Source: a virus
Length of the DNA stretch: 64,000 nucleotides
Virus record (IMG/VR): IMGVR_UViG_3300042934_000631
Span: 4,412 to 68,411 of that record
Strand: one strand, 5' to 3'
The position numbers and the translations under genes are program-made. Below, in pieces: positions 9,926 through 33,552 of the stretch (within the stretch, counting starts at the first letter, position 1; the number at the start of each line of letters is the position of its first letter). The notes under the pieces are model-generated. The model was given only the letters and a program-made list of their open reading frames with translations, was not told where the DNA came from and did not search any database.

Positions 9926-10021
9926 TGTGCGAAACGGCGAAGTCTCTTCGTACATTGCAGTATAACGCCGGATAAATTATTTTCGCGGGAAGTGTACGGA
10001 ATTTTTCCGACCGGCGTCGTA
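9926..10021 (+). promoter_or_regulatory. Tandem phage promoter motifs A and B
   Basis: TGTGCG-N16-TCGTACATTGCAGTA then TGTACG-N18-TCGTA; both repeated elsewhere in the window. Confidence 0.65.
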
Positions 10022-10051
10022 GTCAGTGTAAGCCGAAAGGAGGCCGCCACT

Positions 10052-17330: not shown

Positions 17331-17993
17331 ATGTTGAACTCGTTCCTTAACGTGTTCTTCGGCACCTTAGACTCACTAGCGACTTTCGTACTTATTTATA
17401 AAATTTTCCGTTGGCCGTTCTGGCGCGATTTCAACAAGCTGCTCATTCTCGCCGTCATCATCGCACTCGTCTCATTTGCGGACAGGACCGTGCTTGGACT
17501 AGCGGAATTCGATACCGCCATCCAATTCGTTCTGTATGTATTATTCCTGCGTTACATAATAAAAGTCGGATTCTGCGACGCTGCGCTGCTATCCGCGATT
17601 GGCTACAATAGTTTCTTACTTATTCAACTCATCGTTTATCCGGCGCTGCTTGCGTCAGGCATCGTAAGCACAAGTGACGCCGAAGTGGCGAGCGGTTTCG
17701 GAACATTCATCATCCAGGCATCGACTGAAATATCGTGCTTTATCGTTGCGGCATTGTTGTACGTGTTCCGTCTCGGATTTGCACACGTTGACTTACCGCC
17801 ACATGATGCTTACGCAATCCAGAGCTGCACGAAACTCGACTGGATCGCTAACGTAATCGGTGCGATAGCGGTCATGTCGTTCACGTACTGGCTATTAAAT
17901 CACGTAAGTAATATCACGTTAATGATTCCAGTACTCGCAGTCACACTGGCGTTCCTTCTATATTTATCGCGAAGAAAGGACTACGGAAGATGA
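17331..17993 (+). CDS. Multi-pass membrane protein resembling the AgrC sensor module, no kinase domain
   Basis: About 6-7 hydrophobic segments; 220 aa; ends RRKDYGR with no HisKA/HATPase; overlaps agrB. Confidence 0.6.
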   Translation: MLNSFLNVFFGTLDSLATFVLIYKIFRWPFWRDFNKLLILAVIIALVSFADRTVLGLAEFDTAIQFVLYVLFLRYIIKVGFCDAALLSAIGYNSFLLIQLIVYPALLASGIVSTSDAEVASGFGTFIIQASTEISCFIVAALLYVFRLGFAHVDLPPHDAYAIQSCTKLDWIANVIGAIAVMSFTYWLLNHVSNITLMIPVLAVTLAFLLYLSRRKDYGR

Positions 17994-18520
17994 CGTTAAC
18001 ATTATCTCGAAAGTTCGCGGATTTCACGCTTAAGCACAATCCGCATGAGACGCGCAGTTACGAATCGCTCGTCTATCAATTTGCAGTTATGGTAAACTTC
18101 TTGTCCATAATTACGTTAACACTTTTGATCGGATTGATCAATGGGCACTTAGGCGCAACTTTAACCGCGGGCGCTGCGTTTATGTCGTTAAGGGTGGTAT
18201 CCGGCGGCTTCCACTTTAAATCGTTAGACCTATGCGCAGTCGTAACGGCAGCCCTATACGGAGTCATCCCGCTAATACCGTTAGAATCCGCTTACATAAC
18301 GTGGATTAACGCGATCAGCCTCGTTTTAGTCGCGGCTCTCGCACCGACTAACTTGCGGAATACGTTATGGACGAGCACGACTCGCGCAAAGATAGCGTTC
18401 AAAGCTGCGGCTATGTGCGTAGTATTAATCGGATGGGCATTCGGTTCAGAAATCGTTGCGCTGGCGTTCCTGGCGCAGGCATTACTATTGATTCCACGAA
18501 GGGAGGTGGCCATTCGATGA
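17990..18520 (+). CDS. agrB: AgrB-like peptide-processing membrane protease
   Basis: LRVVSGGFHFKSLDLC (R-xxx-GG-x-H-x6-C catalytic dyad); LAP motif; several TM helices. Confidence 0.88.
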   Translation: MTLTLSRKFADFTLKHNPHETRSYESLVYQFAVMVNFLSIITLTLLIGLINGHLGATLTAGAAFMSLRVVSGGFHFKSLDLCAVVTAALYGVIPLIPLESAYITWINAISLVLVAALAPTNLRNTLWTSTTRAKIAFKAAAMCVVLIGWAFGSEIVALAFLAQALLLIPRREVAIR

Positions 18521-18636
18521 AAAACGTTGCTAAGTTTATGTCCGCTGTATCATTCGGCGTCGCATTTGTATTCTACGTTACCTTAAAGGGCGGTATCGGC
18601 GAAATCAGCGCACCAAAAGACTTCTTTAAAAAGTGA
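18517..18636 (+). CDS. agrD: AgrD-like propeptide, cassette copy (MKNVAKFMSAVSFGVAFVFYVTLKGGIGEISAPKDFFKK)
   Basis: GGGAGGTGG RBS; ATGA overlap with agrB; 39 aa; amphipathic leader and EIxxP tail. Confidence 0.85.
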   Translation: MKNVAKFMSAVSFGVAFVFYVTLKGGIGEISAPKDFFKK

Positions 18637-32463: not shown

Positions 32464-33441
32464 ATGAAGATTACGATGCCATGCGTTAACTGGAATAAGT
32501 CGGAAGATTACGTAAATGTGTTCTGGAATCAGAACATTATGCAGTTTTGGACGGAGGAAGAGTTCCCGGTATCCGATGATATCGGGGATTGGACGGGACT
32601 ATCCGAAGCCGAGCGCTCAACTTATAAACACGTGCTGGCGGGCCTCACCGGTCTTGACACGCAACAGGCGTCCGAAGGAATGCCGCTCATTTCGCTTCAT
32701 ATCGGCGACCACCGTAAGAAGGCTGTCCTGGCGTTTATGGGCGCGATGGAGCATATGCACGCGAAGTCGTATTCGTCCATCTTTACGACGCTGCTTACGT
32801 CGGAGGATACGGATTACCTGCTCGAAACGTGGGCGCCGAATCAGTCCAATCTCGTATATAAGGCGGAAGCGATTGGTCAGTATTACCGCAAGCTGCTGAA
32901 GCCTGACGTGTCGGGATACGAACTCTATATGGCGTGCGTGGCTTCGGTCCTCCTCGAAAGCTATCTGTTTTATAGCGGATTTTACTATCCGTTATACCTG
33001 TCCGGTCAGGGTATAATGCGCGCGTCTGGCGAAGTCATCCGGAAAATCCTCATTGATGAATCGATCCATGGCGTATACGTCGGCTACCTCGCGCAGGAAC
33101 TGCACGCGCAGCTAACGCAAGAGGAGCGTATCCGTTCAACGCATGAAATCGCCGATCTATTGCGTAGGCTTGACGCAAACGAAGCCGAGTACTCAGCGGA
33201 ATTGTACGATCCGCTCGGACTTACTGACGACGTGTTGCGGTTTATCCGTTACAACGCGAATAAAGCGCTTATGAATCTCGGCCTGGACACCGCATACGAA
33301 CCCGAACCATTCAGCGCGATCGTAGAGAACGGAATCGACACGGGAACGAAGCAGCACGATTTCTTCTCGCAGAAGGGCGACGGTTACGTTATCGCGCTTA
33401 ACATCGAACCAATGACGGACGACGACTTTATTTTCGCGTAA
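32464..33441 (+). CDS. nrdF: Class Ib ribonucleotide reductase beta subunit
   Basis: GLTGLDT; MEHMHAKSYS; DESIHG; HDFFS. Confidence 0.95.
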   Translation: MKITMPCVNWNKSEDYVNVFWNQNIMQFWTEEEFPVSDDIGDWTGLSEAERSTYKHVLAGLTGLDTQQASEGMPLISLHIGDHRKKAVLAFMGAMEHMHAKSYSSIFTTLLTSEDTDYLLETWAPNQSNLVYKAEAIGQYYRKLLKPDVSGYELYMACVASVLLESYLFYSGFYYPLYLSGQGIMRASGEVIRKILIDESIHGVYVGYLAQELHAQLTQEERIRSTHEIADLLRRLDANEAEYSAELYDPLGLTDDVLRFIRYNANKALMNLGLDTAYEPEPFSAIVENGIDTGTKQHDFFSQKGDGYVIALNIEPMTDDDFIFA

Positions 33442-33442
33442 A

Positions 33443-33510
33443 TGTGCGAAACGAAATAATTACTTCGTACAATGCAGTAAGTGTACGGAAATCCTCCGTG
33501 CGGAGTCGTA
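33443..33510 (+). promoter_or_regulatory. Tandem phage promoter motifs A and B
   Basis: TGTGCG-N16-TCGTACAATGCAGTA directly followed by TGTACG-N18-TCGTA. Confidence 0.7.
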
Positions 33511-33552
33511 ATGAATGTAAGCGCGCAAGACAAATAAACGGAGGTGGGCCGG

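Follow-up and report, generated by a model that had tools for sequence, protein, structure and literature searches.

What closes the ring of an agr-type autoinducing peptide (AIP) when its precursor has neither a cysteine nor a serine in the place of the ring nucleophile? The question is raised by the virus record IMGVR_UViG_3300042934_000631, of which we analysed bases 4412-68411 (64,000 nucleotides, referred to here as the window). The record is 68,411 bases long, is rated complete by CheckV and stems from a Paenibacillus-type phage. In its entirety it holds one gene for the membrane peptidase AgrB and exactly three matches to a small propeptide resembling the AgrB substrate AgrD (copies 1 to 3, Table 1), in each of which the expected nucleophile is absent and a lysine stands one residue further on. 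We propose, with a probability of roughly 0.4, that the three genes encode precursors of one family of phage-made autoinducing peptides in which this lysine closes a lactam ring, most likely Lys-Gly-Gly-Ile (KGGI).

Precursors without a cysteine beside an intact AgrB

A six-frame motif scan together with the list of open reading frames (ORFs) finds the pattern MK..AKFMS...KGGIGEI..P.DF in all three copies. An earlier note on this DNA had claimed that none of the propeptides contains Cys, that KGGIGEI is their invariant stretch and that the ten residues ahead of an EIxxP tail include neither Ser nor Thr in copies 1 and 3. All of this proved correct: Cys is absent throughout, KGGIGEI is present in every copy, and the ten residues preceding Glu-Ile read FFAVMKGGIG in copies 1 and 3 and FYVTLKGGIG, with a single Thr (T22), in copy 2. 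Numbered back from the conserved Pro of the tail, the residue at position -10 is Leu or Met and the lysine lies at -9, which leaves neither Cys nor Ser at the nucleophile position. We regard the peptide genes as real because each has a ribosome-binding site of the GGAG or GGGGA type 7-10 nucleotides upstream. Copies 1 and 3 are identical over their first 23 codons and differ at 12 codons, all within the last 15; ten of these differences are synonymous and two non-synonymous, a mostly synonymous spectrum which indicates that both copies have been kept by selection on the protein. Copy 2 adjoins agrB on the same strand and is translationally coupled to it, whereas copies 1 and 3 do not adjoin agrB.

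The AgrB protein matches PF04647 with an E value of 8.2e-16 (58.3 bits against a cut-off of 23). Its His/Cys dyad, H75 and C82, seven residues apart, is invariant in 14 relatives and likewise in a comparison of 69, in which R68, G73, P119 and Q163 are invariant as well. The corresponding dyad of Staphylococcus aureus AgrB, His77/Cys84, is the one that forms the acyl-thioester (PMC10482373). The central observation of the earlier note, namely that AgrD-like substrates without a Cys or Ser nucleophile lie beside an intact AgrB, is therefore upheld by both the family match and the invariance of the dyad.

An invariant lysine in part of the precursor family

We surveyed the small ORF that follows each AgrB frame, anchoring the peptides on the conserved Pro of their P-x-E/D-L/F tail, a motif conserved among them. 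The survey took in 142 AgrB frames (four loci counted twice), 131 of which had an adjoining peptide, and yielded 119 distinct peptides. Lysine occupies -9 in 50 of these; Ser (28) or Cys (13) occupies -10 in others, and the remainder have Ser (22), Thr (4) or Cys (2) at -9. Within the Lys type the lysine never varies (50/50), and Ser, Cys and Thr are absent from -10 in every case (0/50), the residues there being Leu (18), Phe (9), Ala (9), Glu (7), Met (3), Arg (2) and Gly (2). Conversely, no peptide with Ser or Cys at -10 has Lys at -9. The lysine is thus fixed in position, is mutually exclusive with Ser, Cys and Thr, and is a trait of the family. Side by side with this, the 28 peptides with Ser, Cys or Thr at -9 (loci L104-L144) include four with Thr at the nucleophile column (FTNTATF|NRPETP and similar), and 26 of the 28 keep a Thr at -11.

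In the subtype to which the window belongs (n = 36), Lys(-9), Gly(-5) and an Ile, Val or Leu at -6 are each found in 36/36 peptides and the Pro in 35/36, while -8 takes 8 kinds of residue, -7 takes 9 and -11 takes 11. The known autoinducer precursors of the AgrD families combine an invariant nucleophile with a variable ring, and an invariant lysine followed by variable -8 and -7 positions makes the same pattern. Profile alignment with hhalign of 25 Lys-type peptides against 35 with Ser or Cys at -10 gives a probability of 97.5% (E 5.2e-12, 43 columns), by which measure the Lys-type peptides are homologous to the Ser/Cys-type precursors. The lysine aligns one column after the Ser/Cys, and there is no gap between it and the Pro. 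On the side of the enzyme, the columns of Lys-type AgrBs and of those with other partners differ at L79 (subtype 1) and P169 alone.

The same observations bear on the main rival to a lactam, a linear signal, for which AgrB would trim the tail, the thioester would be hydrolysed and the lysine would serve AgrB recognition, export or contact with the receptor. The missing thiol or hydroxyl at the nucleophile column is just what a linear product would lead one to expect, and since the candidate receptor is not a canonical AgrC, the dependence of known receptors on a ring need not carry over. Still, the lysine is retained in 50/50 peptides despite candidate receptors that are only 14-82% identical to that of the window, and despite variable residues at -8 and -7, which a biosynthetic role fits better than a contact with the receptor. 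Nor does it look like a general recognition residue for AgrB, as it is never found at -9 in the types with Ser or Cys at -10. Known autoinducers are moreover reported to be inactive in linear form (PMC10482373). We therefore consider a linear product unlikely, while treating it as a serious rival.

Cut site and ring size

Which residues would form a lysine-closed ring depends on where AgrB cuts. In the hhalign alignment Gly(-5) falls on the His that starts the tail of the Ser/Cys types. We take P33 of copy 2 to align with P38 of S. aureus AgrD; E29, P33 and F36 of the charged tail are then spaced as are E34, P38 and L41 in the staphylococcal protein. In S. aureus AgrD, whose nucleophile is Cys28, the AgrB cut frees a 14-residue tail with two essential residues, E34 (in second place) and L41 (PMC10482373). 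Because E29 and F36 lie at the E34 and L41 distances from the proline, the equivalent cut would be I27|G28 and not before the glutamate. A second Lys subtype has His or Asn at -5 before S-P-x-x-P in 4 of 14 peptides (KPMF|HSPKAP, KPLF|HSPEIP, KPLY|NSPELP), and the same S-P-x-x-P tail is found in Ser types, for example SPFYV|HSPEVP.

The earlier note had suggested cleavage before the glutamate, which would give a five-residue ring closed by lysine. Its general interpretation stands in so far as the peptides are AgrD-like, the AgrB is intact and the lysine is invariant; its register is probably off by one residue, as the profile alignment, the tails of the second Lys subtype and the spacing of E29 and F36 all favour a cut one residue earlier, and thus a K-G-G-I ring. 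Counting atoms, a lysine and three further residues contribute 7 + 9 = 16 to the ring and a cysteine or serine and four further residues 4 + 12 = 16, so that moving the nucleophile by one residue with its change to lysine leaves the size of the macrocycle as it was. AgrC does not accept a macrocycle of altered size (PMC10482373).

A lactam could also be formed in the other register, with the cut after Gly28 and the lysine closing a five-residue, 19-membered KGGIG ring. That Gly(-5) is found throughout the subtype of the window and is absent from -5 in the types with Ser or Cys at -10 would fit a residue of the ring, and glycine is an unhindered acyl donor. The alignment, in contrast, sets this glycine on the first residue of the tail, an arrangement that matches E29 to the essential E34, and the four peptides of the second subtype with His or Asn at -5 before S-P-x-x-P resemble the Ser types in this respect. 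We rank KGGIG second among the lactams and think it quite unlikely.

Proposed route and its difficulties

We infer the following route, in which the cut site, the closure of the ring, the receptor and the output are all predicted. AgrB, acting through His75/Cys82, would cut copy 2 at I27|G28, five residues ahead of the conserved Pro, to leave a thioester on Ile27 and set the tail GEISAPKDFFKK free. The epsilon-amine of Lys24 would attack the thioester and give cyclo(Lys-Gly-Gly-Ile), a ring of 16 members closed by an isopeptide amide, and a host protease would remove the hydrophobic leader. The freed peptide would be sensed by a 220-aa membrane protein encoded upstream of agrB, and a regulator with a LytTR domain only, encoded downstream of copy 2, would thereby be freed or activated without phosphotransfer.

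A ring of another kind, either closed head-to-tail after removal of the leader or a lactone formed through an upstream Ser or Thr, seems very unlikely to us. T22 of copy 2, at -11, could supply a hydroxyl, and four relatives have Thr at the -9 nucleophile column, but -11 is among the most freely varying positions noted above and copies 1 and 3 lack both Ser and Thr over the ten positions that precede Glu-Ile. Ring closure in S. aureus comes ahead of the loss of the leader (PMC10482373), and at that stage there is no free alpha-amine for a head-to-tail closure. We give hardly any weight to the notion that the peptides are not AgrB-made signals but small membrane peptides, for instance with a part in lysis timing, which lie beside agrB by descent only: copies 1 and 3 lie at a distance from agrB and next to lysis or membrane genes, and for the copies scanned Pfam and NCBIfam gave 0 families at E <= 1, with no match to an AgrD model, but such a peptide follows 131 of the 142 AgrB frames, is homologous to the Ser/Cys-type precursors and keeps the P-x-E/D-L/F tail.

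Several points count against a lysine-closed KGGI lactam. The first is that cyclisation as such is wholly predicted from sequence. The survey, too, was selective: five of the 50 Lys peptides, which have divergent tails, were picked up with a search pattern of which K is a part, and 11 AgrB frames without a recognisable peptide were dropped (L031, L056, L078, L096, L105, L106, L135, L137, L138, L142 and L145). The finding that no precursor lacks a nucleophile is therefore true partly by construction, and a precursor without both nucleophile and tail motif would have been missed. The 28 peptides with Ser, Cys or Thr at -9 mean either that ring size varies, with rings of 13 atoms, or that the cut moves, which weakens the argument from a constant 16 atoms. 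Gly(-5), invariant in the Lys subtype only and never found at -5 in the types with Ser or Cys at -10 (His 30, Tyr 6, Cys 3, Asn 2), could belong to the ring. In the comparison of AgrB columns, no acidic or basic residue that might act as a base for the amine was common to both Lys subtypes. Lastly, a synthetic lactam of AIP-1 is inactive on S. aureus AgrC1 (PMC10482373), although the receptor here is a different one.

The history of the trait gives further grounds for caution. In a tree of 69 distinct AgrBs, drawn from a part of the loci surveyed, the Lys subtype of the window forms one clade of 28 (Shimodaira-Hasegawa-like approximate likelihood ratio test, SH-aLRT, 97) whose sister is a Ser/Cys pair, and 13 AgrBs of the second Lys subtype group together as a clade among Ser types (SH-aLRT 94). 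Just two changes between Lys and Ser/Cys are enough to account for this tree. Nor does the approximately unbiased (AU) test reject one clade for all Lys types (p 0.54); the tree constrained in this way is better by 0.88 log units. With a single clade not rejected, lysine may be one inherited event rather than a solution found repeatedly. We considered convergence, that is two independent origins of the lysine, as the free tree separates the two subtypes, but dropped this claim in view of the AU result.

A cassette without a kinase

Four closely packed genes encode, in this order, a membrane protein, AgrB, the peptide (copy 2) and a LytTR protein (Table 1). In a Pfam scan, none of the cassette proteins matched an AgrC kinase or the receiver domain of AgrA.

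Table 1. Positions in the window of the peptide genes, the agrB cassette and neighbouring features.
Feature	Position	Strand	Details
220-aa membrane protein, seven predicted helices; candidate peptide receptor	17331-17993	+	
AgrB, membrane cysteine peptidase (predicted peptide processing)	17990-18520	+	H75 18212-18214; C82 18233-18235
AgrD-like propeptide, copy 2	18517-18636	+	39 aa; start codon (ATG) overlaps agrB stop
Copy 2 sites: K24	18586-18588	+	
Copy 2 sites: proposed ring K24-I27	18586-18597	+	
Copy 2 sites: G28	18598-18600	+	
Copy 2 sites: P33	18613-18615	+	
129-aa LytTR-only DNA-binding protein; candidate output regulator	18647-19036	+	without receiver domain
82-aa XRE/Cro-C1-type helix-turn-helix (HTH) protein, convergent on the cassette	19224-19472	-	HTH_3 E 3e-4, below Pfam cut-off
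AgrD-like propeptide, copy 1 (orphan)	346-462	+	38 aa; K24 at 415-417; six-frame motif scan, ORF list
GC-rich hairpin (GGCGCC...GGCGCC) and T-run	463-520		trails copy 1
AgrD-like propeptide, copy 3 (orphan)	22250-22366	+	38 aa; K24 at 22319-22321
74-aa two-helix membrane protein	22390-22614		directly 3' of copy 3
Repeated motif pair	9926-10040; 19538-19590; 33436-33520		

The 220-aa membrane protein falls in phrog_15604, annotated 'membrane protein' (2e-46). It has no Pfam or NCBIfam match, and hence no PF14501 domain was found in it; we take PF14501 to be the ATPase domain of AgrC-type kinases. Its AlphaFold2 model (predicted local distance difference test, pLDDT, 93.9) consists of seven long helices, and a comparison of this model with the ESM Atlas returned template modelling (TM) scores of 0.63-0.65 over 190-198 of the 220 residues to kinases of 403-432 aa, all with PF14501. 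On the strength of the models, the protein may resemble the sensor module of AgrC without the kinase, which we offer as a lead and not as proof. A Foldseek search of the model against the PDB found nothing at E <= 0.001, a result that does not mean a new fold, and the wide setting of VIA-align returned helical hairpins alone, with Z at most 7.1 over 50-62 residues. Among solved structures, no chain matched the AgrB profile or the membrane-protein profile at E <= 1. A search for fused or longer relatives of the membrane protein among proteins of 428-2000 aa was negative at E <= 0.001, which is weak evidence.

The 129-aa protein matches the LytTR family PF04397 (E 9e-7, 29.5 bits against a cut-off of 22.6) over residues 21-119 only. 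Complex prediction for the membrane protein with the LytTR protein scored 0.35, against 0.00 for the best of three controls, and so supports a pairing weakly; contact agreement between runs was at least 88% and the pLDDT of the partner at least 76. Of 80 solved complexes 58 attain the mark set for such predictions, and of 110 mismatched pairs 2 do so; among those that passed at scores of 0.60 or below were 7 of the 80 solved complexes and both of the mismatches.

Around the cassette, no direct-repeat families (0) were found in window positions 19000-19650, a search that did not extend to the cassette's own upstream region, inside the primase gene. A repeated motif pair (TTTTCGCG..AAGTGTGCGA ... 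TCGTACAATGCAGTA) precedes the sigma-factor gene beside the cassette and two other operon starts, and looks like a phage-specific promoter.

The orphan copies lie in other surroundings. Copy 1 begins 37 nucleotides past the end of an endolysin-like gene, and the hairpin and T-run that trail it suggest that it ends the transcription unit containing this gene. Copy 3 is flanked by a gene of phrog_6883, to which no function is assigned, and by that for the 74-aa membrane protein, whose holin-like Pfam matches are below threshold and which belongs to no PHROG family.

Relatives and gene order

The same gene order is found in the Brevibacillus phages Abouo, Emery and Davies, in 39 IMG/VR contigs and in Paenibacillus genomes, and the AgrB profile matches 85 of 136 genomes of the Paenibacillus family at E <= 1e-15. 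Of 138 AgrB frames, 129 are immediately preceded by a relative of the membrane protein, and 98 have a LytTR-like frame within 600 nucleotides downstream. The nearest relative of the window is a 69-kb Paenibacillus planticolens contig titled 'Circ', in which AgrB is 78% identical and there are again three peptide copies, all KGGIG. Two copies with KGGIG, separated by 54 kb, are also present on a 9-Mb chromosome of Paenibacillus.

Some relatives depart from the arrangement of the window. In one Paenibacillus cassette the gene that follows the peptide encodes a LytTR domain joined to a diguanylate cyclase of the GGDEF type (L117:2035-3093; GGDEF 1e-50, LytTR 4e-8). Cassettes of this type have T-N-[S/C/T] peptides, and 15 further loci have frames of 323-368 aa in this place, the Pfam scan covering L117. 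The fusion suggests that the LytTR-like module may be the partner of the membrane sensor, with cyclic di-GMP as an output. Upstream of AgrB, phages Emery and Davies have the membrane protein as two paralogues in tandem (L002:1047-2448, L003:1056-2460), where the window has one. A viral cassette of the Ser type has a full response regulator, with receiver and LytTR domains, after the peptide (L029:2774-3520); it keeps the short membrane protein upstream, and there is no kinase in the stretch examined.

Comparison with known systems

The phage system shares with agr of S. aureus an AgrB-family protein with a His/Cys dyad and a small precursor made up of a hydrophobic leader, a short core and a charged tail in which Glu, Pro and Leu/Phe have the same spacing. 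It differs in that its peptides have no Cys and carry a Lys one residue later, and in having three precursor genes for one AgrB. It also departs from the canonical AgrBDCA set in lacking the AgrC kinase and the AgrA receiver domain.

Ser-lactone autoinducers, of which GBAP of Enterococcus faecalis is one, provide a precedent for a changed ring nucleophile within the family, with an AgrB that has co-adapted. Their nucleophile is an oxygen and their ring an ester, whereas the phage candidate would use an amine and have an amide ring, which is expected to resist hydrolysis. The AIP of S. intermedius is likewise a Ser-lactone, and a Ser precursor is not processed by S. aureus AgrB1/2 (PMC10482373). 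Amide closure of an AIP-type ring has been achieved by synthesis, in AIP-1 lactams in which nitrogen replaces the ring sulphur; these are man-made and have lost their agonist activity on AgrC1 (PMC10482373). Compared with them, the lysine route would bring four side-chain carbons and one residue fewer into the ring. Pilus sortases and transglutaminases are Cys enzymes whose acyl-thioester is resolved by the epsilon-amine of a lysine to give an isopeptide, but their folds are unrelated and their reactions intermolecular.

The closest described systems are those of the Brevibacillus phages Abouo (gp44-47), Davies and Emery, which have the same four genes in the same order, an AgrB 29-38% identical and peptides of the form K-x-x-[IL]-G-x4-P without Cys. 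These phages differ in having one peptide gene each and in carrying an integrase. Hargreaves et al. (2014) reported, in a single paragraph, that they carry AgrB, a putative AgrD and membrane proteins without an ATPase domain (PMC3901668); the word 'cysteine' is absent from the text of that paper. Abouo gp46 has the RefSeq name 'cyclic lactone autoinducer peptide', and other relatives are named 'hypothetical protein' or are not called.

A second point of reference is the LytTR Regulatory Systems HdrRM and BrsRM of Streptococcus mutans, in which one operon encodes a receiver-less LytTR protein and a membrane protein. The membrane protein inhibits the LytTR regulator, and signalling takes place without phosphotransfer (PMC6193735). 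By its architecture the phage cassette falls under the definition of these systems, which implies no kinship between the membrane proteins. They differ from it in having no known peptide ligand and no AgrB or AgrD. Direct repeats immediately ahead of the operon promoter are a further feature of such systems; the one stretch of the window searched, 19000-19650, gave none.

Implications

The lability of a thioester or ester ring is part of how autoinducing peptides behave. In the literature examined, those of the agr type that have been described are thioesters or esters, except for Cys-derived homodetic cyclopeptides that form from the thiolactone (PMC8251862, PMC11297923). A survey of 2025 lists 43 characterised peptides from six species, and the characterised peptide of Paenibacillus polymyxa is of the canonical Cys type, ICFGLF (PMC12180512). 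Our literature search found no natural autoinducer closed by lysine or by an isopeptide; the roughly 34,600 predicted AgrDs in data S4 of PMC12180512 lay outside this search and may hold Lys-type precursors. Gene callers mostly miss the precursors, as five of seven that we looked up are absent from a collection of 15 billion proteins.

The signal may thus be a ring closed by an amide, a type for which there is no earlier description. We tentatively propose a natural macrolactam class of autoinducing peptides, with a 16-membered isopeptide ring, which would be widespread in Paenibacillus, Brevibacillus and their phages, and which in this phage would stem from three genes, located in different operons, and be perceived by a sensor and LytTR pair without a kinase. 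If this is true, the ring should not open in water or base, and the signal might count infected or lysogenic cells, as arbitrium does. AgrB chemistry would come to include S-to-N acyl transfer to a side chain, probes of quorum sensing could be built on a stable scaffold, and a large group of precursors mostly missed by gene callers would be explained. Being situated next to the repressor region of temperate phages and of phage-plasmids, the cassette would also offer a testable system of peptide communication for phages other than arbitrium.

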